42,423 bases of DNA from Escherichia phage Ec1-ASingh, in sequence record PQ561394, one strand, 5' to 3'. Below are positions 5,279 to 36,013 of the stretch, one piece after another. Below the pieces are notes generated by a model that had not been told where the DNA came from, made no database searches, and was given only the letters and a program-made list of their open reading frames with translations. Made by a program: the position numbers and the translations under genes. How positions within the stretch are numbered: the first letter of the stretch is position 1; the number at the start of each line of letters is the position of its first letter.

Positions 5279-7711
5279 GTGGATTTACTTGCAGAGCAGA
5301 TTCGACTTGAAGAAGAAGCGCGAGCCAGACACCGCGAGGGCTGGCTGGATAATATCAAAGAGGCGATGGCCAGTGGCCGCGCCGGGTCGGTGCCGTTGCT
5401 CCAGCGTATGATGGTTGAGGCTTATCCTCTGGTCGAAGCTGCGATGCAAGAAACCCTGAGCGAAACGACCCGTGGGTATGGTGCGCAGTACCGGACGTAC
5501 ATGCGTGAGATTGGCACCAAAGCGTGTGCCTCTCTCGCACTGAGCATGGCGGTGTCCGGTGCTGCGTCGGAGCAGGCGGTACTGAGTCTGCTCAAGAGCA
5601 TGGGCAAGGCACTGATGGCTGAGGTGGTGTATCTCCGGGCGAAGCAGACCGGGCCACAGCAGGCGGCGTACATGGAGCGCGTTAAGCAAGACGTGAAGAA
5701 GTCTCGCTCGAAGTCAGCGAACCACGTCTACAATAAAGCGCGTGCGTCGGCGGCGAACGTTGGGGTAGAGATTGATGTGCTGCCGCAGCGTGCGCTGATT
5801 ACCATCGGCAAGCTGATGATGAAGTGCGTCGAGCCAACTGGTCTGGTGTCCACGATTCGCGTCGGCGGCAACCAGCGCCAGCGCGGTACGGCACACTTCG
5901 CCCTGCATGAAGATGTGCTGGCTACGATGAACGACTGGCTGGACATGCCGCGTGCTGATGGCATGTGCTGCCCACCGCTGATTATCCCACCGAAGCAGAT
6001 TGCCCCGAACGGTCGCAGCGGCATGTGGCATTCCGATGGGCAGGCAGCGATGTACCGGGTCATGAGTCGCATGAACCACAAAGGGTATCGTGCATTGAAC
6101 GTTGACCCGACCCCCGTTATAGAGCCGTGTATGATGCTCAGCAGCGTTCCGTACCGAGTTAACCCAATGGTACTGGAGTTCCTGCGAACGAACCGTACAG
6201 GCGTTATGGGGCTGCCTGTGCCACCTCGTGAGCCTACACTTCCGTTCACCATCCCCGCTGGTGTGAGCTTTGCACAGTACATCAGCAAGTTCCCACCAGA
6301 GATGCAGCAGCAGATGGATGCCGAAGCTCATGAGTACAAGGTGAAGACTCGCTTGTATTACAATGAGTTGCGTAAGTTCACGTCGCAGATGCTGGCGTTG
6401 AATGGTGCAGTCAAAGAGGCAGAAAGGTATGCGCAGTACGATAGGATTTATCTCCCGACTTACGCCGATACGCGGGGCCGAATTTATTATTCTTCGACCC
6501 TTAACCCTCAGTCTATCGACGCAGTGCGAGCGCTGCTTGAACTTGCGGAACCAGTGGCTCTCGGAACTGAGGGGCTGTTCTGGCTCAAGGTTCATGTTGC
6601 GAATTGTTTCGGCTACGACGCAACAGACTTCGACGACCGGGCGGCGTGGACGGACAAGACACTCCCCCGACTACGTGAGGCGTGCCGTCTTCCAGAGGCA
6701 TTTGATTCGTTCTGGTCAGAAGCCGATAGCCCTATCAGCGCGTGGGCTGCCTCTGTTGAACTCATTCGCGCTATCGACTCAGGAAGTCCTGAGACTTATC
6801 CCTGCCGAGTGGTTACGCAATGGGACGCTACCTGTTCAGGATTACAGCACCTCAGTGCGATGCTACGAGATGAAGTTGGCGGTGCTGCTGTCAATCTTAT
6901 CAATAGCGTGGGAAGAAAAGCAGACATATATCTCAAGACGGCAGCAGCGGCGATGCAGGCTCTTGAAGATAGTGAAGCGCAGTCACCGACGCAGATGGGT
7001 ACGTGGCTTGTTTCAATCGGTATTGTCCGGGCGATGGCTAAGAAGCCAGTGATGACCTACGTGTACGGGGCAACCCGGCACGGTATGGTGGACTACTACT
7101 GCCTGTATCTACGAGAGAACCGGGTCAAGCTGCCGGACGGCAAGAGCCTGCTGGAGTGTGCGCAGTTCATCGCAGAGTTCATGTGGAATGCAATCCCTCG
7201 CGTTGTGCCGAAGGCGGCAGAGCTGATGGCATGGTTGCAGGCTATCGCGGTTGAAGCGGCAGCCAACGGCGAGTACGTGGAAATCATCGCACCGTCAGGG
7301 TTGCGGGTGGTTAATCTGTATCAAGCCAGCAAGGAGACGATGCTCAACAACATCAACCTCATGGGTATCCACAGCATTAAGCTGCGCGAGTATCTGGACA
7401 AGCCGGACGGCAGGAAGTGTGCCGCTGCGATTGCTCCGAATTTCGTACACGCCATGGATGCCAGCCACATGATGAAGGTGTTGTGGGAGATGTGGAATAA
7501 CGGGGTGTACATGGTGTCCATCCACGATTCGTTCGGGGTGGCGGCTGCACATGCCGGGTTACTCCACAAGGTCATTCGTGAAAAGTTCGTACAGATGTAT
7601 GAGCAACATGACCCAATTCAACAACTTGCTGTACGATACAATGCTGTTGCACCTGAACGGGGCAATCTGGATATCCAGCTTGTGAAACAATCAAGCAAGT
7701 TTTTCTGCTGA
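5279..7711 (+). CDS. single-subunit DNA-dependent RNA polymerase (T7-like)
   Basis: 810 aa; [26 protein letters not shown] matches T7 RNAP catalytic motif ([20 protein letters not shown]); HDSFG motif C present; GTG start after AAGGAG. Confidence 0.95.
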   Translation: [810 protein letters not shown]

Positions 7712-7739
7712 TAAATAGTGATATGTATCATTGACTTAA

Positions 7740-7760
7740 ATGAAAGTGTCTATAGTGATA
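7740..7760 (+). promoter_or_regulatory. conserved motif ATGAAAGTGTCTATAGTGATA (candidate phage-RNAP promoter for late genes)
   Basis: Located in the RNAP-structural intergenic region; followed by palindrome GTGATAGATATCAC; recurs at 8009, 35978 and inverted at 29428. Confidence 0.4.
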
Positions 7761-7821
7761 GATATCACGCTACCGGTAGCCCCGTCAGTGGCGGGGGTTG
7801 CTGCCACTAAGAGAGGATTGT

Positions 7822-8007
7822 ATGGGTAAAGAATCTCCACTTGAAAGAGTTCAGTTCACTAAAGCACAGTTAGCTCTACTGGAGAAGCACTTCGGTACAT
7901 GGTCTCAGGTAGGTAAGACAGTCACTCCCGACACTAACCTACCTCTGATTAACAGAGAGGCTGGTAAGCAAGACGTTCTGGATTTCATCAGAGAAAGAGT
8001 GATTTGA
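7822..8007 (+). CDS. hypothetical protein
   Basis: 61 aa; GAGAGGA RBS 4 nt upstream of ATG 7822. Confidence 0.45.
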   Translation: MGKESPLERVQFTKAQLALLEKHFGTWSQVGKTVTPDTNLPLINREAGKQDVLDFIRERVI

Positions 8008-8008
8008 A

Positions 8009-8428
8009 ATGAAAGTGTCTACTATGGGAAATACATCACACACGACGATGCCACTCGACATTCGCCGTGCTGTGGCCGAAGGCATTCAAGCTGAGCGGCC
8101 ATGGTCAGACCTATCTCCCGATGTGATTGTTGACAGCATGTACGAGGCCACCGCCTCCGGTTGCGTTGACGTTTACATCACTGCCGATGACGGCAGCCTC
8201 ATGGCTGTCGCTCACATCGGCAGGTTATTCGATATTCATGTGGGCGAGATGGTGGTCGTTATGGCCTCATACGTCTGGCCCCAGTACAGAAACCGTGGAG
8301 TGATGCGTGCCATCCTCCGTGTACTCAAAGACGTGGCCCGTTCAGCGGGTGTGCGTTGGTGCGGTTACTCCCATATGGTGCGGCCTTACGTTCAGGAGTA
8401 CCGCTTCATTGATTTGGAGAAACCGTAA
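8009..8428 (+). CDS. GNAT-like N-acetyltransferase (putative)
   Basis: 139 aa; segment VWPQYRNRGVMRAILRVLKDVARSAG resembles GNAT motif A (acetyl-CoA binding); start overlaps conserved ATGAAAGTGTCTA motif so true start may be ATG 8024. Confidence 0.45.
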   Translation: MKVSTMGNTSHTTMPLDIRRAVAEGIQAERPWSDLSPDVIVDSMYEATASGCVDVYITADDGSLMAVAHIGRLFDIHVGEMVVVMASYVWPQYRNRGVMRAILRVLKDVARSAGVRWCGYSHMVRPYVQEYRFIDLEKP

Positions 8429-8688
8429 TGGGTAGCGTAGGCAAAGTATTCAAGGGCATTGGCTCCGTCTTCGGACTGGGTAGCCAAAAGCCGCAGTACA
8501 CTATCAAGACTGACCCGGCGCAGGTCAAGGCAGAAACCATGCAGGCTAACCTTGCAGCCGACCTCGCTGGTGAGAACACCCCAACCATTCAGGCAGGTGG
8601 CCAAGTAAGCTCGGCCTCTGATACGCTGGGTGGTCGCCGCCGTCGCACCGGAACTGGTGTGGCAAGTAACCTCGGCATTGGGAGCTAA
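8428..8688 (+). CDS. hypothetical small Gly-rich protein (possible virion protein)
   Basis: 86 aa; TAATG overlap with upstream gene; position just before portal. Confidence 0.5.
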   Translation: MGSVGKVFKGIGSVFGLGSQKPQYTIKTDPAQVKAETMQANLAADLAGENTPTIQAGGQVSSASDTLGGRRRRTGTGVASNLGIGS

Positions 8689-8690
8689 GC

Positions 8691-10256
8691 ATGACTCAAG
8701 ACGCGCAGAACGTCAGCTATGAGTCTCTGTGGCAGAAGTACCGGGATAGCAACGTTGTCACGAAAGCGCGGGAGTACAGCCGCTACACACTGGCTAAGCT
8801 GGTGAGCGAGTACGACCGCAGTGACGTGGACGACATGAACCGCCAGCAGATTACTCGTGATTACCAGTCTGTCGGCGCTCTGCTCGTCAACAACCTGACC
8901 GCTCGGTTGGGTGAGTTCCTGTTCCCGGCTTCCGCACGATTCGTGAAGCTGAAATTAAACAAGGTGTCTGACCAACAGCGGCAGTCTATGTCGCAAGTGA
9001 ATCAGGCGCTTATCACTATTGAGAAGGCCATCGTAGACAAAGCCAAAGAGAATGGCGGCTACGCTGACCTGCTCCAGTGCATTGCCCAACAAGCTGTGAC
9101 CGGAAACGCCGCGCTGTACCGCGATATGGAAACTGGTTCGTACCGAGTGTACGGATTGGAATCCTTCGTGGTGCAGCGCGACGGTCGTGGCGTTGTGGTG
9201 GATGCTATTATCAAGGAGCGCATCCAGTGGGATTCTCTGCCGAAGGACTTTCAGAATGAACTGAACTCCAAAGGCTTCCGCTGTGGTGGGAACAAACGCG
9301 TGTGGCTGTACACCCGCGTCCTTCGCGTTCAGAAGGACAGTGGCAATTACGGCTACGAAGTAACGCAGCAGATTGGCAACTACCAAGGCTGCGTCTATAC
9401 CCCCGGTAAAGATTACTACCCTGAAAAAGTCTGCCCATGGTTATTCCCAGTGTGGTCTTTGAAGTCTGGCGAGCATTACGGTCGCGGGATTGTCGAAGAC
9501 CACGCTGGGGATTTCGCACGTCTGTCGCTCCTGTCTGAGCATTCTGCTCTGTACATGCAGGAAGCGCTGCGCGTGCTGTGGATGCTCACTGGCTCTGGCG
9601 GCAACGTCGATGACATTGAGAGCGCAGAGACTGGGCAGGTCATTCCACTCCAGAACGGCACCACGTTGTCGGGGCTGGAGGTCGGGGATTACCAGAAAGT
9701 TCAACAGGCCCGTGACGAAATCAACCAGATTGTGCAGCGACTGGCGCAAGCCTTCATGTACACTGGTGAGTTCCGTGACTCCGAACGTACCACCGCCACC
9801 GAAGTGCAGCAGGTAGCAACCAGCGCCGAGCGTGGGCTGGGTGGGCCGTACTCAATGCAGGCTAAGACCCTCCAGATTCCTCTGGCGTATGTCCTGCTCG
9901 CGGAGATTGACGAGTCCACCGTACCAGATATCGTCGGCAACATCCTGTCGCTTCAAGTCGAAGCTGGCTTGGATGCCCTCGGTCGAAGCATTGAAGCTGA
10001 GACGCTTATCAGAGCGCTCTCCGACTCGCAGGCAGCAATGGTTGCTGTCCAGAATATTAATGGCGTTGCTAACACCATCGACCCTCAGAAAGTCCTTGAG
10101 GTTATCTTTGCCTCCAATGGTGTTGCGCTGGACGACTATCGTAAGTCGCCACAAGACTTGGCCCAAGAAGGTCAGGCCATCGACAATGCAGCCGCTGCCG
10201 CCGCTGGCGTACAGCCGGGCGCAGTTGATGTAGCGCCTAACATCGCACAGATTTAA
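8691..10256 (+). CDS. portal (head-tail connector) protein
   Basis: 521 aa; GGGAG RBS; size and position upstream of scaffold/capsid as in T7 gp8 / phiKMV connector. Confidence 0.75.
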   Translation: MTQDAQNVSYESLWQKYRDSNVVTKAREYSRYTLAKLVSEYDRSDVDDMNRQQITRDYQSVGALLVNNLTARLGEFLFPASARFVKLKLNKVSDQQRQSMSQVNQALITIEKAIVDKAKENGGYADLLQCIAQQAVTGNAALYRDMETGSYRVYGLESFVVQRDGRGVVVDAIIKERIQWDSLPKDFQNELNSKGFRCGGNKRVWLYTRVLRVQKDSGNYGYEVTQQIGNYQGCVYTPGKDYYPEKVCPWLFPVWSLKSGEHYGRGIVEDHAGDFARLSLLSEHSALYMQEALRVLWMLTGSGGNVDDIESAETGQVIPLQNGTTLSGLEVGDYQKVQQARDEINQIVQRLAQAFMYTGEFRDSERTTATEVQQVATSAERGLGGPYSMQAKTLQIPLAYVLLAEIDESTVPDIVGNILSLQVEAGLDALGRSIEAETLIRALSDSQAAMVAVQNINGVANTIDPQKVLEVIFASNGVALDDYRKSPQDLAQEGQAIDNAAAAAAGVQPGAVDVAPNIAQI

Positions 10257-10266
10257 TGGAGAATAC

Positions 10267-11499
10267 ATGTTTGGTGAATCCCAACCTACTGCCGCACCCG
10301 CTCCCCAAAACGTACCCGCTGGCCCGACCTATACTCCCTCTGGTCACAGCGGTAATGATTATGGTGGAAGCCCACAGGTGGTACAGAACCCAGCGCTAGG
10401 CCGACTGGGTACGCCTATCGAGTTACCTCGTGGCGGCGCTACCCCGCAGCCAGTGCAGCCGTTCGGACAGCAGCCGGGCCTGATTCCTGCACAGGAGCAC
10501 AACCCGTATGCACAGCCCCAACAGGGAAACCCAAGTCCTTACGCACCCGTACCTCAGCAGAACCCGTATGGTGCTCCGCAGCAGACCTCTCCGTTTGCGG
10601 CACCACCAATTCCGGTTAATGGGTATCAGAATCCGGGCGCAACGCCTCCGGGCCAAGCGGCTCCGGCACAGCAGTTCCAGAACCCTGTAGCTCCACAGCC
10701 TTACGCTTTCGACCCGTACGGTCGTCAGCCGGGCCAGCCGCAGGCACCGCAACCTCAGCAGCAGCAGCCGCAACCTTTCCAACAGTTGCAGCCGCAGCAG
10801 CCGGGTCAACCGCCGCAGCAGTTCCAGAATCCCAACCTCACGGCTGATAAACTGGCGACTCAGGAAGGTGGCCTGACCGCAGAGCAGGTTGCTCAGATTT
10901 TCCCGGACGATACCAGTCGCGCCGTATTCCAAGGCATGGACACCATTGCCCGTGGCCAGAACATCGACCTGCTCGCAGCGTTCGGTTCTGCTTACGAGCG
11001 TCGTGACCCGTCTCTGGTGAACGACCGCTATCTGGCGCAGTTCGACCCACAGACTGTATCAATCCTCAAAGGTCAATTCGGCGCACTGGTTGCGGCTGGT
11101 CAGCAGCGCGACGCTGCAATCGAGCAGCAGGTTTACCAGATGGCTGGCGGCGAGGAACGATGGGGTCTGGCTGTACAGGCATTCAATACTGCTGCTGACA
11201 AGGGCACTATTGATGCTGTTGTCGCGGCTGTTAACTCCGGCGACCCTAATCAGGTACGTCTGGCAGTGAACACCATTCTCCAGTTCGCTGGTTCCGCAGG
11301 GAACTTGATTCAGCGCTCTGGACAAACTTTGACGCCTAATGGTGGCGGTCAAGCACCTCGTGAGGTTATGACCAACGAGGCATTCCGTCAGCATCTTGGC
11401 TGGCTTGAGCAGGCGCATCCTGTTGGTTCCCCGGAATACAACAAGCATTACGCCGTACTGGTAGAGCAGCGCCGTCAGGCTAAAGCTCAAGGTTACTAA
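10267..11499 (+). CDS. scaffolding protein with long Pro/Gln-rich low-complexity N-terminal half
   Basis: 410 aa between portal and capsid; residues ~1-190 dominated by P/Q/G repeats. Confidence 0.6.
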   Translation: MFGESQPTAAPAPQNVPAGPTYTPSGHSGNDYGGSPQVVQNPALGRLGTPIELPRGGATPQPVQPFGQQPGLIPAQEHNPYAQPQQGNPSPYAPVPQQNPYGAPQQTSPFAAPPIPVNGYQNPGATPPGQAAPAQQFQNPVAPQPYAFDPYGRQPGQPQAPQPQQQQPQPFQQLQPQQPGQPPQQFQNPNLTADKLATQEGGLTAEQVAQIFPDDTSRAVFQGMDTIARGQNIDLLAAFGSAYERRDPSLVNDRYLAQFDPQTVSILKGQFGALVAAGQQRDAAIEQQVYQMAGGEERWGLAVQAFNTAADKGTIDAVVAAVNSGDPNQVRLAVNTILQFAGSAGNLIQRSGQTLTPNGGGQAPREVMTNEAFRQHLGWLEQAHPVGSPEYNKHYAVLVEQRRQAKAQGY

Positions 11500-16305: not shown

Positions 16306-19002
16306 ATGGCTACTATGCGTGACCAGCGTGGCGCTAACCTTAATGCTGCGCAGCAGGGATTACCAAGTGTGCAGCAGGCGCAGACTCCGTTCAGTCTCGC
16401 AGGCCGCGATACTCGCATTGACACGTTTCCTACCGAGTCCATTCAGCGCGTACTGAACATGGCCAGCCAATTGGCTGGTCGTGTCACTGAGCGTGCGAAC
16501 GAGGAAGAATACCTCAAGGGTGCCAACGCCGCCGCGAGCGGCAAGGCTGTTGAGGATTTGGATTCGAACTGGCTCACTGCCCAGTTCCAGAAGGCTGGTT
16601 ACAACGACCAGTACAAGCGTATGCAGATGGCGAAAGTCGCCTCTGATATCTCGGCTAACATGCCGCAGTACGCGAAAATGAGTCCTGACGAGTTCTTGAA
16701 GGTGGTGGACGAGAAGACCACTGGCCTGTTCGAGAACACTGATGGCATGACGCTGAATGGTCGTAAGGCTCTGCTGGAGAACCAGCTCACGTTCAGCAAT
16801 ACCCTTATCCGTACGCAGGCTGCCCAGCATGGTAAGTATCTGGTTGAGCAGCGTGCGGCGATGTACAACTCGCAGGGTAACACTCTCGTTACTCTGGCGG
16901 CTCAGGCCAAAGCAACTGGTGACGGCGGCGCGTACGCTAACGCCACGGCTGCGACCATGGCATGGGCCAAGTCCATTCTGGCAGACGAGAAGCTGCCACT
17001 GGAAACTCGCCGGACTCAGGTAACGTCCATGATGGGGCTGATGCTCCAGCAGGATTTGCGTACTCCGGTCGAGACTGCTGTGAACTCAGGGCTGTTCAAC
17101 GAGCTGCCTGCGGAAGACTTGGCCAAGCTGCAAGGTCAGATTCGTGAATCCAAATCTCGTACCGAGGTTCAGGACAACATGGGTCTGCTGGCACAGAAAG
17201 GTCAACTCGACGCACGACAAGCAGTGTTCGGTGACGTTACGCCGGAGCAGTACACTCAGACGCTCCAGCAGATGGTGGACAACAAACTGATTAGCGCCAG
17301 CGGTTTTAGCTCGGCTATCGAGTCCTTCTACAAGGACTACGCCAAGCAAGCCAAGGCCAGCCAGCTCGGTCAGGCTTACGCTACCGGGAACCAGACGTAT
17401 ATGCTCCAGCAGGGCGCGAGCGAGCAGGATGGTGCTGACGCATTCATCAAGGCTCGCATGAAGCAACCGGGCGCGACGGCAAGCTCCGTGGCATTCGACC
17501 TGCTGCAAGTTGGCGCACAGACTGGTTTCCCTTCCGCGTATAAGTCTGCCGCGAAACTGATTGAACCATCCCTGTCGAACTTCGGCACCGTGGATGAAAT
17601 GAACCCTGATGCAGCCGCTACCGTAACCGGGCTGATTGACCGCGTAACCGTGGCCGAGAATCAGGGTGACAAGACCGCGTGGACTAAACTCCTGTCCGGT
17701 CTGTCCGAGGAAAACCAAGAGAAGATGGTGTACATGCGCGAGCAGATTAAGGCCGGGCGCACCATCGACCAAGCTGGTCAGGGTTACATCAAACAGCAGC
17801 AGGACTATGCTGGCTTAACCCCGGCACAGAAATCTCAAATTCTCACGCAGCGTCAATCTGACGTTAACAATGTGGTGAACTCCCTTGAGGCTCAGGGCTT
17901 CTTCTCCCGCACTTGGCAGGGGCTGGCTGGTCTGTTCTCAGACACTCAGCAGAACCTGTTCCAAGCTCGCGTCGCATCTGGTGACATTACTGCCGCGCAG
18001 GAAATGTCGGAGGTGGCTGCCGCGTACCGCGAGGAACTGCAAGCTGTTGTCCTCAAGAACCCTAACATCACGAAGGATGGTATGGAAGCTCTGGCCTCTG
18101 CGAAGCTGGCCAACCGTGTCCTCCGCGTTGGGGAAACCACATTCAGCCCCGGCTCTGTGCTTATCGCACCGAGAGGCCAAACTGTTCAGTCTATGCTCGG
18201 CTTGCCTGCTGACGTAGCCCCCGACCGTATTGGTCGCGCTATCGCCGCACTTGACCAGACCAAGGCACCAGAAGGCTTCGAGTCGTCCTACTCCTTTATG
18301 CCAGATGGCTCCCTGAACGTTCAGTTCTTCAACAAGCAAGGTGACGTTTCTCCGAACTCGGTACGCATTCTGCCGCAGGTCGTGCAGGAACGCATCCGTG
18401 AAGATGACCGTGCAGCGGCCACTGCCAATAACGAAGTCTATGGCGACGGGAAACTCTTTGTTGATAAGACCAGTAACGTGGGTATCCGCGTGAACGGCGT
18501 GAATACTGCTGGGGTAGACGAGCAGCGTATGCTTGTTGCCCGTGGCAAACTGATTGACTTCGAAGGTATCCGCAGCACCACTTACCGTGACAGCACTGGC
18601 GTGCAGACGAACGGGGTCGGTATCTCCGACCGCAGCCCGTACTTTGCTGAGGGTCAGGCTTCCGGTATGAAAGGCGGTACTGAATGGTCTCCGCGAACTA
18701 TCCACGATACGTTCGTGGCACACACCAACATGGTAGCCCGGCAGATGCCCGGCACTGCTGCTGCACTGGGGTGGAGTCGTGACAACGATGCCCAGTTCCA
18801 GTTCATGATGCAGATGGGTTATCAGGCAGGTTCAAGCTGGTACCGTACCGATGGTGCGTACAGCAAACTGGCTGATGCAATCCGTGTTGGCGACCGAGAG
18901 AAAGCTGTTCAGGCTCTGGCTGCGACCCCGGCTTACAAGCTGTCGCAGGACGAGCGTAAGCAGTATTACGTCCAAACTCTACTCGCAGGTATGCAGGAAT
19001 GA
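16306..19002 (+). CDS. internal virion protein (gp15-like position)
   Basis: 898 aa; synteny; 4-nt overlap with next gene. Confidence 0.6.
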   Translation: MATMRDQRGANLNAAQQGLPSVQQAQTPFSLAGRDTRIDTFPTESIQRVLNMASQLAGRVTERANEEEYLKGANAAASGKAVEDLDSNWLTAQFQKAGYNDQYKRMQMAKVASDISANMPQYAKMSPDEFLKVVDEKTTGLFENTDGMTLNGRKALLENQLTFSNTLIRTQAAQHGKYLVEQRAAMYNSQGNTLVTLAAQAKATGDGGAYANATAATMAWAKSILADEKLPLETRRTQVTSMMGLMLQQDLRTPVETAVNSGLFNELPAEDLAKLQGQIRESKSRTEVQDNMGLLAQKGQLDARQAVFGDVTPEQYTQTLQQMVDNKLISASGFSSAIESFYKDYAKQAKASQLGQAYATGNQTYMLQQGASEQDGADAFIKARMKQPGATASSVAFDLLQVGAQTGFPSAYKSAAKLIEPSLSNFGTVDEMNPDAAATVTGLIDRVTVAENQGDKTAWTKLLSGLSEENQEKMVYMREQIKAGRTIDQAGQGYIKQQQDYAGLTPAQKSQILTQRQSDVNNVVNSLEAQGFFSRTWQGLAGLFSDTQQNLFQARVASGDITAAQEMSEVAAAYREELQAVVLKNPNITKDGMEALASAKLANRVLRVGETTFSPGSVLIAPRGQTVQSMLGLPADVAPDRIGRAIAALDQTKAPEGFESSYSFMPDGSLNVQFFNKQGDVSPNSVRILPQVVQERIREDDRAAATANNEVYGDGKLFVDKTSNVGIRVNGVNTAGVDEQRMLVARGKLIDFEGIRSTTYRDSTGVQTNGVGISDRSPYFAEGQASGMKGGTEWSPRTIHDTFVAHTNMVARQMPGTAAALGWSRDNDAQFQFMMQMGYQAGSSWYRTDGAYSKLADAIRVGDREKAVQALAATPAYKLSQDERKQYYVQTLLAGMQE

Positions 19003-22000
19003 TTACACAAGAATCGCTCGACAAGTTCATGGCTCCCAAGCAGGGGGCCAATGCCCCTACGCTGGTGATTCCAGCTCCCGTAAAGACTGCTGACCTCAGC
19101 ACTCCGCTGCAAGATGCCACTCGTCAGGGTGCTGTCGAGCAGTTCGATAAGATGCAGGAACTGGAAGCGACTCCGATGGCCACGGCGTTGAGCGCTTCTG
19201 TGAAGAACTGGGATACCACTCAGCTCTTTGATGCCGCCTTCAACAAGCCTACCTTTCAGGCTGACCCGGACTTCAAGCCCAACGAGGCGTTGCAGCAGGT
19301 TCAGTTCCCGATTGGTGAAGACGACAGAACTTTCCTGTTTAAATCCAAATCTATGGACGAGTTCAACTGGCGTACGCAGCAGCTCCAAGAGATGCGCGAG
19401 CGTACCCAGTTGGCTCACACTGCTCCGGTGATGAACGCGGTTCTGCAATTCGCTGACCCGCTGTACCTCGCCACCGACCTGCTCTCGATGGGAGCAGGCA
19501 CTGCCCTGAAACTAGGTCGCCTCGGAACCTCCGCTGTCGGTGCAGCTTCAACTGCTGCCACTATGACAGCGGTGGGTAATGAAGCACGCCCAGTGTCTCA
19601 GAACGAAATCATCTTTGCGGCTGCCCTGCACGGGGCGGCCACCACTGCATTCTATCGTCCGGCTCCGGTACAGCGGTCGCTGGCCGACCTGTCGCCAGAG
19701 GAATTTGCAGCAGAGATGCAGCGTCGTAACGGCATTGACCCGAACAACCCTCCGCAGTTCGACCCGAACAACGCTATGTCACCACTGGCCATGTCCTTGG
19801 GCTTTGGTGGTCGTGGCGCTACTGTGGTTGACGAGGTGCCAGAATCCATCCGTGCCACTGCGCAGCGCGGTCTCGACCTCGCCCGTCGCGGTGAGCAGAC
19901 CAACCCTAAGCGTCCGTTCCTCGAATGGTCGCTGTTCAAATCATTCAGCCAACATTCTGACGAGGCCAGTGCTCTCGCCGGGCGACTGCTGGATGACCCA
20001 CTGAATCCGAACATGACCTCCGCTGCATCAATCCAGCGCGAGACTCAGGCTCGGTTTGGTGTGCTGCTGAACCAGTATGAGGACACCCTGCGTAACGCAC
20101 TGAACACTGACGGCTGGACTAACATCCGTCGCTTCCGTGACCCAGTGGGCTATCGCCGGGCGCAGCAGGAGTTCGAAGCTGCTGTCCGTTTCGAGCTGGA
20201 CAAGCGCATGATTGACAAAGAGTTCCGTGGTGCCAATGCTAACGTGGCCGCTGCCGCCGACCGACTGGGGGAATACTCCCGCGCCGTGGGCCGCGAGCTG
20301 GAAGCGAAGGGCATGGTGGAACCGGGCTTCGTAGACAAGAACCCGTACTACTACCCGCGCCGGATGAACGTGACCAAGATTGAGCAGGCTGAGCAGTTGC
20401 TCGGCAAGAAGCCATTCATGAAGCAGATGACGACCGCTGTGCAGCGCGGTATCGGTACTGACCGTCCGACTGCCAACGTCATTGCCCATGCCATGGTTGA
20501 GCGTGCTCGTCGTAAGGGTTACGGTATTGACAACTCCGGTATGATTATCAACAAGGAAGGTCGCGATGAATTGCTCGAAATCATTGAGAACGCGAAAGGT
20601 CTCGACGAGGCTGCCAAGGCCCGTGCTTCCGCACTCCTTCGTGAGTCTGGCTCGGACGCTGGCCGACCGCCGATGCTCAAGAGCCGCATCAACATCGACA
20701 TGATGCACCAGCTCGGCCCTAACTTGCAGGTGCGTGACCTGTTCGACGACAGCATCACCAGTATGATGGACAGCTATAACCGCCGCATTACCGGGCGACT
20801 GGCTCTGCATGAAGCTGGACTGGGTACTGATGCTGAACGCGCCGCCGCTCGCGAGGCGCTGGCCAAATCCATCCCGGATAGCACGGCACGCCGTAAGGCT
20901 CTCGACCAATACGACAACATCATGGCTTACTACCAAGGTGCTCCTGTTGGTGAGGAAATGCCGGAGTTCATGCGCCAGCTTTCAGCGCTGACTCAGGCCA
21001 CTGGTCTGGCTGCATCTGGCCTGTGGCAGTTGGTAGAATACGGCACGATGATGCAACGTTTCGGGGCAGTCAATACGTTTCGCGCCATGATGCGTACAAT
21101 TCCCGAAGCACGCGCACTATTTAAGCAAATGAGGGTGTCTACTAAGGAAGGTCGTCAATTGGCTCTGGATGCCGAGGAAGCGCTGACTGCGGCTGTAGCG
21201 AGTGATATTCGTATGCGCCCAATCATGCAGCACTATGACGACATGTTCTCTGCGGATAAGTCTCCGTGGGTCATGCGTATGGAACACCTGCGCGATGCCA
21301 CGATGTTCATCAACATGCAGAAATACATCCACTTCCACCAGACTCGAACCAATGCTGCGCTCGTGATGCAGACGCTGCGTAAGGCAGCCGAAGGTGATGC
21401 CAAGGCTATTGCAGCCATGAAAACCTACGGTGCCAATGACGTGCTGCTGGCTGACATTCGCAAGCAGGTTGGTACTCATGGCACCAAGCCTGATGCTTGG
21501 GATGAAGGGGTGTTCAATCGCTCTCGCATTGTCATGATGAATGCCATGGATGACGCTATTGTTCGCGCTCGCGTAGGTGAGCTGCCTGCATTTGCTGAGT
21601 TCAGTACGCTGGGTAAGTTCCTGTTTACGTTCCGTCGATTCGTCGCGGCAACGCACAACAAGACTCTGGTTGGTACTTGGAATCGTGAGGGTGCCCGTGG
21701 GCTGGCAACGCTGATGGCGTACCAGTATCCGCTGGCGATGATGGCCACTGCTGCCAATAACGTGATTTCCGGTAAGGCATTCTCTGACCCGGATACCATG
21801 GCTCCGAACAAACTGGCTGGTCAGGCACTGAACTATCTCGGTGCTATCGGCTTTGCCTCTGAGTTCACTGGAGTTCTGACCGGGCAGCAGCGCAGCTTTG
21901 GTGCGCCGGGCCTGTTGTTCCTCGACCGCCTGTACGGTGTTGCTGGTGCCACCTCTGCTACGGCAGGTAGTCTGGCCACTGGTGATTTTGACCAAGCCGG

Positions 22001-22103
22001 ACATAACGCTCGCAAGGCAGCCGGGAACATCATTCAGGCTCTCCCACTAATCTCCATTGTGCCGGGTGTCCGAGCACTCAACGAAGCAGTTAAGGGTGAA
22101 TAA
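18999..22103 (+). CDS. internal virion / ejection protein (gp16-like position)
   Basis: 1034 aa; synteny; ATGA overlap with upstream gene. Confidence 0.6.
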   Translation: MITQESLDKFMAPKQGANAPTLVIPAPVKTADLSTPLQDATRQGAVEQFDKMQELEATPMATALSASVKNWDTTQLFDAAFNKPTFQADPDFKPNEALQQVQFPIGEDDRTFLFKSKSMDEFNWRTQQLQEMRERTQLAHTAPVMNAVLQFADPLYLATDLLSMGAGTALKLGRLGTSAVGAASTAATMTAVGNEARPVSQNEIIFAAALHGAATTAFYRPAPVQRSLADLSPEEFAAEMQRRNGIDPNNPPQFDPNNAMSPLAMSLGFGGRGATVVDEVPESIRATAQRGLDLARRGEQTNPKRPFLEWSLFKSFSQHSDEASALAGRLLDDPLNPNMTSAASIQRETQARFGVLLNQYEDTLRNALNTDGWTNIRRFRDPVGYRRAQQEFEAAVRFELDKRMIDKEFRGANANVAAAADRLGEYSRAVGRELEAKGMVEPGFVDKNPYYYPRRMNVTKIEQAEQLLGKKPFMKQMTTAVQRGIGTDRPTANVIAHAMVERARRKGYGIDNSGMIINKEGRDELLEIIENAKGLDEAAKARASALLRESGSDAGRPPMLKSRINIDMMHQLGPNLQVRDLFDDSITSMMDSYNRRITGRLALHEAGLGTDAERAAAREALAKSIPDSTARRKALDQYDNIMAYYQGAPVGEEMPEFMRQLSALTQATGLAASGLWQLVEYGTMMQRFGAVNTFRAMMRTIPEARALFKQMRVSTKEGRQLALDAEEALTAAVASDIRMRPIMQHYDDMFSADKSPWVMRMEHLRDATMFINMQKYIHFHQTRTNAALVMQTLRKAAEGDAKAIAAMKTYGANDVLLADIRKQVGTHGTKPDAWDEGVFNRSRIVMMNAMDDAIVRARVGELPAFAEFSTLGKFLFTFRRFVAATHNKTLVGTWNREGARGLATLMAYQYPLAMMATAANNVISGKAFSDPDTMAPNKLAGQALNYLGAIGFASEFTGVLTGQQRSFGAPGLLFLDRLYGVAGATSATAGSLATGDFDQAGHNARKAAGNIIQALPLISIVPGVRALNEAVKGE

Positions 22104-27460: not shown

Positions 27461-27949
27461 ATGAAACTGTCTCGGCTAATGGCCGGGGCAGTCCTATCAG
27501 CGTCGCTGACTCTGACGGGCTGCTCCGCAACTAGCGCACTGTCTGCTGTAACTTCGGCTGTATCTCCCAACAAGCCGGAACTGACGGCTCAGGTAGGTGC
27601 AGAAAATACGAAGCAAGGTATCGGTGTGACTGCGAAACAGTCCGATGAAACCGAAGTCGGTGATGTATCTGGCAACGCGAAAGTGGATACCGCTAAGCAG
27701 GGTTCGAATGGCACATCCATCAAGGACGTCTCAGGAGGCTCTGTAAACGCTTCTAAGCAGGGGTCGCAAATGACCCAAGGAAACGTACAGGCTCGCACGG
27801 TTATCGTCTCTCAGAGCGACCCACGCAGCCTCCTATGGGCTTTCGGCATGGGCCTTACGTGTATCCTTGGTTTAGTCATGTGGTTTGTACCATCTCCGTG
27901 GAAAAGGAAAGTGAAAGATGACGGAAGCAAAGAAGGAGCCATCTCCTAA
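27461..27949 (+). CDS. lipoprotein with C-terminal TM helix (unimolecular-spanin-like architecture)
   Basis: Signal peptide with lipobox LTLTGC at N-terminus; Gly/Ser/Thr/Gln-rich middle; C-terminal hydrophobic helix LLWAFGMGLTCILGLVMWFV. Confidence 0.5.
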   Translation: MKLSRLMAGAVLSASLTLTGCSATSALSAVTSAVSPNKPELTAQVGAENTKQGIGVTAKQSDETEVGDVSGNAKVDTAKQGSNGTSIKDVSGGSVNASKQGSQMTQGNVQARTVIVSQSDPRSLLWAFGMGLTCILGLVMWFVPSPWKRKVKDDGSKEGAIS

Positions 27950-29400: not shown

Positions 29401-29570
29401 GCGCTCGCTCTGCGTATCTAGCGATACTATATCACTATAGACACTTTCATAATTATCTATTGATATCAGTAACTTATGACCTATCTGATAACGGTATTCT
29501 ATCCAGTGTTGTGATTATCTAATCAAACTTTAATCCTAATGATTACAGTAACTTATCACTTTTCTTGAAA
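29401..29570. other. AT-rich block with GATA-type palindromes and T7-like CACTATAG core
   Basis: TATCACTATAGACACTTTCAT at 29428-29449; TGATATCA and related palindromes at 29454-29500. Confidence 0.5.
29438..29450 (-). promoter_or_regulatory. inverted copy of conserved ATGAAAGTGTCTA motif (candidate phage-RNAP promoter element)
   Basis: Reverse complement of 29428-29448 is identical to 7740-7760 (21/21). Confidence 0.4.
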
Positions 29571-35977: not shown

Positions 35978-35990
35978 ATGAAGGTGTCTA
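35978..35990 (+). promoter_or_regulatory. conserved motif ATGAAGGTGTCTA (third + strand copy), preceded by hairpin
   Basis: Follows hairpin ATGCCTG-ttattatttag-CAGGCAT (35952-35976); 23 nt upstream of the 36014 start codon. Confidence 0.35.
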
Positions 35991-36013
35991 TATTGGCCAA
36001 CGTGAGGTGAACT

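Follow-up and report, generated by a model that had tools for sequence, protein, structure and literature searches.

A predicted minimal GNAT-fold gene of the Rac family in a Bonnellvirus phage, with a putative phage promoter across its start codon

The genome of Escherichia phage Ec1-ASingh (sequence record PQ561394) contains, between the genes for its RNA polymerase (RNAP) and its portal protein, an open reading frame (ORF) for a predicted GNAT-type acetyltransferase of the Rac family (phrog_3986). The stretch of DNA analysed, referred to here as the window, is the whole record of 42,423 nucleotides (nt). The GNAT gene lies at 8009..8428 on the plus strand, opens with ATG, encodes 139 amino acids (aa) and closes with a TAA stop codon at 8426-8428. 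An earlier, sequence-only reading of this DNA had given these coordinates, this length and a place between RNAP and portal, all of which hold; two small genes share the interval. The order on the plus strand begins with the single-subunit phage RNAP gene (5279..7711), annotated in Escherichia phage megetsur and 26% identical in its product to T7 RNAP (E 8e-65). Next comes a small gene of 61 aa (7822..8007), the counterpart of gp27 of Pseudomonas phage LUZ19 (weak similarity, E 0.015; phrog_6575, E 3.8e-4), and then the GNAT gene. The first structural gene follows, encoding an 86-aa virion protein (8428..8688; phrog_35536, E 4.9e-47) homologous to LUZ19 gp29 (E 7e-7), and after it the portal, or head-tail connector, gene (8691..10256; 36% identity to LUZ19 gp30, E 2e-89), which is likewise annotated in megetsur. 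The scaffold and capsid genes come after the portal gene in window order. The TGA stop of the 7822-8007 ORF sits one base ahead of the GNAT ATG (TGAAATG), and the GNAT stop codon overlaps the ATG of the 86-aa virion gene (TAATG). The source genome is a Bonnellvirus, in the Autographiviridae; positions 7700-8700 are 100% identical to Enterobacter phage BHUENT7 and 99.6% identical, at the nucleotide level, to megetsur.

Orthologues of the GNAT gene were present at 54-100% protein identity in all Bonnellvirus and Waewaevirus records found, and the pairwise ratio of nonsynonymous to synonymous substitution rates (dN/dS) among five of them was 0.06-0.17. This conservation, together with the low dN/dS, identifies a real protein-coding gene under purifying selection. 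Alternative starts at Met6 or Met14 were considered and rejected: phages Lidtsur and J8-65 have no Met6, the stretch of residues 2-13 is conserved and confidently modelled as strand beta1, and the PHROG match begins at residue 1.

The GNAT-like call of the sequence-only reading was borne out by profile searches. Pfam Acetyltransf_1 (PF00583) matches aa 31-115 with 23.7 bits, above its curated gathering cut-off of 20.7 bits (E 6.4e-5), in a match that ends at position 93 of the 116-position profile; Acetyltransf_7 and Acetyltransf_9 also match, below their cut-offs. A profile built from 18 orthologues matched thialysine and spermidine/spermine acetyltransferases in the Protein Data Bank (PDB), with an alignment spanning beta3-beta4-alpha3. 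The best of these sequence matches, to a thialysine acetyltransferase (E 8.6e-4), is informative for the register of motif A only, and PDB sequence matches to the ribosomal protein uL14 were discarded as chance. The Pfam and PDB sequence scores are weak overall. An aminoglycoside resistance enzyme was also rejected, as the NCBIfam AAC(6') matches are sub-threshold (15-18 bits against cut-offs of 290-325), and a PADLOC search returned no match for the protein.

The absence of a GNAT fold from structure prediction had been named as the result that would overturn the acetyltransferase call; prediction instead gave a confident GNAT fold. An AlphaFold2 model of the 139-aa protein, with an orthologue alignment as input, had a mean predicted local distance difference test score (pLDDT) of 93.8 and a predicted template modelling score (pTM) of 0.86. 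Its elements are beta1 (residues 2-8), alpha1 (16-29), alpha2 (37-47), beta2 (52-58), beta3 (64-75), beta4 (79-89), alpha3 (98-112), beta5 (117-125) and beta6 (128-135), which include the core GNAT arrangement beta1-alpha1-alpha2-beta2-beta3-beta4-alpha3-beta5 with a mixed sheet. Every match in a Foldseek search of the PDB with this model was a GNAT. By sequence and predicted fold, the 139-aa protein is thus a GNAT-fold protein. More precisely, the 8009-8428 product is predicted to be a minimal one, running beta1-alpha1-alpha2-beta2-beta3-beta4-alpha3-beta5-beta6 with no alpha4, and it is the positional counterpart of LUZ19 gp28.

Residue conservation was read from a set of 73 family proteins, comprising 70 of the 81 relatives (nearly all of them 130-160 aa) recovered by an exhaustive profile search, together with LUZ19 Rac, LKA1 ORF39 and T7 gp7. 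The segment VWPQYRNRGVMRAILRVLKDVARSAG, singled out as motif-A-like by the sequence-only reading, corresponds to aa 89-114 (nt 8273-8350) and does lie inside the region matched by Acetyltransf_1. Alignments place strand beta4 and the pyrophosphate-binding loop of GNAT motif A at 8267..8308 (plus strand), as S87-Y88-V89 followed, after an interval, by R94-N-R-G97-V-M99-R100, and alignment to PDB acetyltransferases puts R94-N-R-G97-V-M99 on their R-x-x-G-x-G loop. In the loop pattern Q/R-x-x-G-x-G/A, R94 and G97 are present here and the last position is Met99; across the family, position 99 is A in 25, G in 12, S in 10 and V in 6 of the 73 proteins. A second element, D75-I-H77-V-G79 in the beta3-beta4 turn (8231..8245, plus strand), is the most conserved motif of the Rac/gp7 family and a candidate active-site element: D75 is kept in 72/73 proteins, H77 and V78 in 69/73 each, and G79 in all 73. 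The corresponding counts in and near motif A are 61/73 for Y88, 66/73 for P91, 69/73 for R94 and 47/73 for G97. The window protein keeps every one of the family-conserved residues (D75, H77, V78, G79, Y88, P91, R94, G97, H122, Y127, Y131 and R132) and is therefore expected to do whatever the family does.

The sequence-only reading had pointed to a phage acetyltransferase of LUZ19, Rac, that targets host RNAP and is encoded in a similar genomic neighbourhood, and this was accurate. Rac, the product of LUZ19 gp28, is a predicted GNAT encoded downstream of the phage RNAP gene, with an overlap into the first structural gene (PMC7552054). When Rac is expressed alone, the alpha subunit of Pseudomonas aeruginosa RNAP is cleaved at Gln244-Glu245, and bulk lysine acetylation rises; alanine substitution in the predicted acetyl-coenzyme A (acetyl-CoA) pocket, written 'QYV---------AR', abolishes the phenotype (PMC7552054). 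In the window protein this pocket corresponds to S87-Y88-V89 and M99-R100, which are separated by nine residues as in Rac; three of the five pocket residues are identical. The suggestion that the gene is an orthologue or analogue of rac is upheld to the extent that the product is a homologue of Rac, encoded by a positional counterpart with homologous flanking genes. BLASTP aligned the two proteins with 28% identity over 109 aa (E 8e-10; 25-28% across alignments), and hhalign matched the profile to Rac with 98% probability (E 1.8e-13, 108 columns). The window protein matches phrog_3986 with an E-value of 5.9e-37 (aa 1-137 against profile positions 1-138 of 148), and Rac scores 2e-66 in the same PHROG. 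The gene order RNAP, small ORF, GNAT, small virion protein, portal is common to the window, LUZ19, LKA1, LIMEzero and Lidtsur. The closest relative characterised by name is LIMEzero ORF36, 54% identical to the window protein, and the RefSeq name of the Lidtsur orthologue, gp37, is 'GNAT family N-acetyltransferase'.

The wider family extends beyond phages of the LUZ19 type. Of the 73 proteins, 72 match phrog_3986, 57 match Pfam Acetyltransf_1 and 55 match phrog_2746, the family of T7 gene 7, with the label 'host range'. The window protein itself has a partial match to phrog_2746, over aa 48-118 only (E 2.3e-11), and its hhalign match to T7 gp7 is weak (67% probability, E 5e-5). Top structural matches in BFVD include T7-like entries named 'host specificity protein A' and 'host range protein' as well as K1F gp6.8, and in T7 and K1F-like phages the gene likewise stands directly ahead of a small virion protein and the portal. 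The family search, the PHROG and Pfam counts, the structural matches and the shared position in T7 and K1F-like phages argue that these proteins form a pan-Autographiviridae family of mini-GNATs, in which T7 gp7 appears as a more distant relative. Within this family, a phenotype is known for the Phikmvvirus member only. One apparent relative, the 3393-aa database protein P0021 (E 1.9e-38 against the GNAT profile), was set aside as a false positive: it is a tandem-repeat surface protein whose score is summed over 31 weak repeat matches.

The start of the GNAT gene had also been noted to coincide with a conserved motif. The 13-nt motif ATGAAAGTGTCTA does begin exactly at the ATG at 8009, and the coincidence is not a matter of chance, since the motif appears to be the phage promoter. 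Exact copies lie elsewhere at 7740 on the plus strand and at 29438-29450 on the minus strand, and the form that allows two R positions, ATGARRGTGTCTA, has five copies in the window against 0.02 expected from shuffled sequence. In each of the five, a G lies exactly 17 nt downstream of the A that opens ATGA. The copy at 8009..8031 (plus strand) falls within GNAT codons 1-8, with A8009 as position -17 and G8026 as the predicted +1 (GGGAAA); its assignment draws on the copy count and on the co-variation described below. The copy at 7740..7762 (plus strand) is in the intergenic region directly after the RNAP gene, from where the GNAT gene could be expressed, and at the syntenic site the LIMEzero record has the annotation 'putative phage specific promoter'. 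A further plus-strand copy, at 35978..36000, stands ahead of the primase/helicase block, and here too the syntenic LIMEzero site (7294-7313) is annotated as a phage promoter, so that two of the five LIMEzero copies carry an annotation as putative phage-specific promoters. Annotation was read in seven complete genome records, none of which marks the promoter embedded at the GNAT start.

The two remaining copies, assigned from the motif and its co-variation, lie in the late region and at its end. One, at 21129..21151 (plus strand), is inside the large internal-virion-protein gene (18999-22103), read in frame as M-R-V-S-T-K. It is about 960 nt before the end of that gene, is conserved in phages Kc261, forsur, Lidtsur and LIMEzero, and its probable effect is to raise transcription of the tailspike, terminase and lysis genes. 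The motif is interrupted by TGA and TAA in frames 2 and 3 and only the ATG frame is free of stops, which explains why both coding copies (8009 and 21129) are in the same frame. The idea that the motif is a duplicated gene start was rejected, as the intergenic copies in LIMEzero read ATA and TTA, not ATG. The last copy, ATGAAAGTGTCTATAGT followed by GATATA, is at 29428..29450 on the minus strand, the strand opposite to all genes. It lies where the late genes end and the early genes begin, and points to the left genome end. Syntenic minus-strand copies occur in Kc261, forsur, Lidtsur, J8-65 (548 on the minus strand, about 290 bp inside the 259-bp terminal repeat) and LIMEzero (655); replication priming and packaging are possible roles.

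The identification of these sites as promoters is carried by their co-variation with the phage polymerase. The 17-22 nt at the GNAT start of each of six complete genomes were used to search that genome, and each time the best matches fell at the same four syntenic places. In all six, the five syntenic copies, the one at the GNAT start included, share the core specific to their genome: GTGTCTA (window), GCTACTA (Kc261), GTGACTA (forsur), a GTA[AT]CTG-type core with one-base variants (J8-65 and Lidtsur) and GGCAAGC (LIMEzero). A seventh lineage, represented by a partial metagenomic contig (L012), shows two copies, one after the RNAP gene and one at the GNAT start, that both have GTTACTA and agree at 15/17 positions. 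Two further lineages (P0022 and P0020), known from short contigs, have promoter-like strings a few codons into the gene, in a single copy each, so that pairing is not comparable. The specificity loop of T7 RNAP reads promoter positions of about -11 to -8. Its equivalent in the window RNAP is aa 687-699 (TMLNNINLMGIHS; 7337..7375, plus strand), which aligns with T7 TRLNLMFLGQFRLQ. Identity among the RNAPs of the window, Kc261 and forsur is 91-92%, and visibly their most variable stretch is aa 687-699, which reads TMLNNINLMGIHS in the window, SPM-HLHLMGVHQ in Kc261 and IALNNINLMGIHG in forsur and so varies in step with the cores GTGTCTA, GCTACTA and GTGACTA. A non-functional look-alike would not keep pace with such change in the polymerase. 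Since the five copies change in concert with the polymerase, sequence comparison leads us to conclude that a functional promoter, or failing that a site bound by the polymerase, probably occupies the first 17 nt of the GNAT gene. One outcome is that GNAT residues 3-4 are V-S, A-T or V-T according to lineage, fixed by the promoter sequence.

If this promoter is active, its position has consequences for expression of the gene that contains it. The GNAT site, with ACTAT ahead of GGGAAA, resembles the T7 promoter (CACTATA ahead of GGGAGA) and the T3 promoter (CACTAAA ahead of GGGAGA), and by analogy transcription would start at G8026. Neither Met1 (8009) nor Met6 (8024) would be part of a transcript starting there. 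The ATG that follows in frame is that of Met14 (8048); it is not preceded by a Shine-Dalgarno sequence, and a protein begun at it would be without beta1. Being without the GNAT start codon, the 8026 transcripts would therefore serve the downstream structural genes only. The enzyme would instead be translated from transcripts begun at or upstream of the 7740 promoter. Given that the upstream TGA lies one base before the GNAT ATG, this translation would be coupled to that of the small upstream ORF. In this way the embedded promoter may uncouple the dose of the enzyme from that of the virion proteins. A scan of 7400-8900 for sigma-70-like promoters and intrinsic terminators found nothing relevant, and the predicted folding of the 5' leader (7757-7830) did not differ from that of shuffled sequences (z = -1.26), so that no RNA structure is claimed.

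Several other features of the window are recorded here as side observations. Short palindromes flank the post-RNAP promoter (7716-7770), with TGATATGTATCA upstream and GTGATAGATATCAC from the predicted +1; TAGTGATA occurs on both sides of this promoter, and the minus-strand copy at 29450 is followed by a similar element, GTGATA. At 27461-27473 (plus strand), ATGAAACTGTCTC has two mismatches to the motif and stands at the start of an ORF (27461-27949); it is without the conserved core and is probably a chance match. The window is circularly permuted with respect to the physical genome of J8-65, with the early region beginning at about 29.5-30.5 kb and the DNA-metabolism genes wrapping to position 1. 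The scaffolding protein gene (10267-11499) encodes a long Pro/Gln-rich low-complexity N-terminal half, and the forsur record annotates a repeat region in its own scaffolding-protein gene.

The reading that we favour, with a probability of roughly 0.6, is that 8009-8428 encodes a minimal Rac-family GNAT that transfers acetyl groups to one or more host or phage proteins, and that the promoter embedded in the gene serves the downstream structural genes. The enzyme would bind acetyl-CoA through strand beta4 (Y88-V89) and the R94-x-x-G97 loop and, once the phage RNAP is active, would acetylate an amino group on a single protein or a small number of proteins, which are more likely to be host than phage proteins. 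A number of observations weigh against this reading. Met99 occupies the third loop position, where most relatives have A, G or S and Rac has V, and of the five Rac pocket residues only Y, V and R are identical here. Helix alpha4 (motif B), which in canonical GNATs lies between beta5 and beta6 and contributes to CoA binding, is not predicted by AlphaFold2, which models the 23 residues after alpha3 as a beta hairpin (residues 117-135), and part of the canonical CoA-binding surface is therefore missing from the model. Nothing in the analysis points to a substrate, and even the work on Rac did not demonstrate direct acetylation of a defined substrate, no acetylated peptide having been identified (PMC7552054). 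As for the promoter, one that gives transcripts with an untranslated leader of about 400 nt would be unusual, and the +1 position is taken from the T7 and T3 analogy.

The same observations bear on the possibility that the protein is a pseudoenzyme, which keeps the GNAT fold as a binding module for a host or phage protein and transfers no acetyl group. The absence of alpha4 from the model, the Met at the G/A position of the pyrophosphate loop, the weak Pfam and PDB sequence scores and the lack of an acetylated peptide for Rac (PMC7552054) would all fit such a protein. However, the family-conserved R-x-x-G loop, the DxHVG motif, the beta5 His and the beta6 Tyr sit at the places of a GNAT active site, and most relatives have A, G or S at position 99. 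In Rac, moreover, substitution of the CoA pocket with alanine abolished the phenotype, and bulk lysine acetylation rose with expression (PMC7552054). We regard a pseudoenzyme as quite improbable. An alternative that keeps the activity is that the protein is a functional orthologue of Rac, under which the host alpha subunit would lose its C-terminal domain and host transcription would be shut off. Homology to Rac within one PHROG, the same slot after the phage RNAP gene with an overlap into the first structural gene, and the retention of three of five residues and the spacing of a pocket that the Rac phenotype needs are all consistent with this. Against it, the alpha subunit stays intact with LKA1, although this phage encodes a GNAT homologue at the same position, and the cleavage is described as genus-specific (PMC7552054), so that homology does not predict the Rac phenotype. 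Identity to Rac is just 25-28%, and the closer LIMEzero ORF36 is listed in the less-similar tail of Rac homologues, adjoining LKA1 (PMC7552054). The host is also an enterobacterium and not Pseudomonas, and the protease was not found even for Rac (PMC7552054). The host-transcription shutoff put forward by the sequence-only reading thus does not follow from the homology, and shutoff of the alpha-cleavage type by the window protein is more likely wrong than right. The family reaches T7 gp7, and we know of no description of alpha cleavage in T7 infection, which also weighs against a functional orthologue of Rac; we consider one unlikely.

A role like that of T7 gp7 would place the protein in morphogenesis or infectivity, where it would modify or chaperone a virion or ejected protein encoded by a neighbouring gene and would not attack host transcription. 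The phrog_2746 match, shared with 55 of the 73 family members, and the BFVD matches to T7-like host specificity and host range entries point in this direction, as does the position of the gene, which always heads the structural module before the small virion protein and portal in phiKMV-like, K1F-like and T7-like phages. Yet T7 gp7 itself is matched only weakly at profile level, and the searchable literature gave no experimental function for T7 gp7 past its 'host range' label, which may be historical; the adsorption phenotype described there belongs to gp7.3. The sole experimentally studied family member, Rac, acts on the host. A gp7-like role therefore seems to us a minor prospect, of about the same standing as a functional orthologue of Rac.

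Beyond the favoured reading of a minimal Rac-family acetyltransferase, we put forward a broader proposal, tentatively and at clearly less than even odds. The portal-adjacent, alpha4-less mini-GNATs across the Autographiviridae (Rac, LKA1 ORF39, LIMEzero ORF36, T7 gp7, K1F gp6.8 and the window protein) might share one conserved acetylation target, with alpha cleavage in Phikmvvirus a lineage-specific consequence. In Bonnellvirus and Waewaevirus, the dose of the enzyme might be set by the promoter in its own first six codons, which would have tracked every change in polymerase specificity, would write the N-terminal residues (V-S, A-T, V-T) and would make late transcripts skip the enzyme.

As a gene annotation the finding is ordinary: one Bonnellvirus orthologue is already a GNAT in RefSeq, and the LIMEzero orthologue is already listed as a Rac homologue (PMC7552054). 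The promoter embedded in the GNAT start is a small finding in its own right, and a clear case of a coding-sequence N-terminus dictated by promoter specificity. The natural polymerase/promoter pairs, in which RNAPs 91-92% identical go with GTGTCTA, GCTACTA and GTGACTA cores, could be mined for orthogonal expression systems. A Rac-family member in a phage that infects E. coli would allow alpha cleavage to be judged as a general family function or a speciality of Pseudomonas phages in the best-understood host. The tie between Rac and the T7 gene 7 family, itself uncharacterised, suggests that all T7-like phages conserve a function where the replication module meets the structural module.

Among known systems, the closest in experimental terms is Rac, which shares with the window protein its PHROG, a GNAT-type sequence, the motif spacing (SYV-9-MR here, QYV-9-VR in Rac), the gene order and a 3' end that overlaps the first structural gene. 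Rac differs in its length of 157 aa, with a C-terminal tail, from the 139 aa of the window protein, in which the pocket Q is replaced by S and V by M. The hosts also differ (Pseudomonas for Rac, an enterobacterium here), alpha cleavage by Rac is not common to all homologues, and visual inspection of one annotated promoter of LUZ19 gave no sign of a promoter copy at the gene start there. LKA1 ORF39 (AV952_gp40, Stubburvirus) belongs to the same family, has the same position and is 42% identical over the C-terminal 60 aa (E 1e-13), but it is shorter, at 125 aa, and is the homologue that was assayed and found without alpha cleavage. LIMEzero ORF36 (Waewaevirus) and Lidtsur gp37 (Bonnellvirus) are orthologues with 54% and 78% identity, respectively, in the same position, and each also has a promoter in its start codon region, with its own promoter sequence; there is no difference of substance.

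T7 gp7 and K1F gp6.8 are alike in size (about 133 aa), in predicted fold (BFVD) and in position before a small virion protein and the portal. T7 gp7 differs in falling best into a sister PHROG (phrog_2746), which is not the best match of the window protein, in its weak direct profile match and in having no Pfam-level GNAT annotation in the scans run here. The promoter, for its part, is of a familiar type. As in T7, T3 and SP6, a conserved block of about 17 nt is followed by G, and the specificity positions co-vary with the RNAP specificity loop; near the start, CTA(T/A)(A/T)-G(G) recalls T3 CACTAAAGGGAGA and T7 CACTATAGGGAGA. What sets the window apart from T7/T3/SP6-type promoters is placement, with one copy over a start codon, one inside a structural gene and one on the opposite strand near the genome end.

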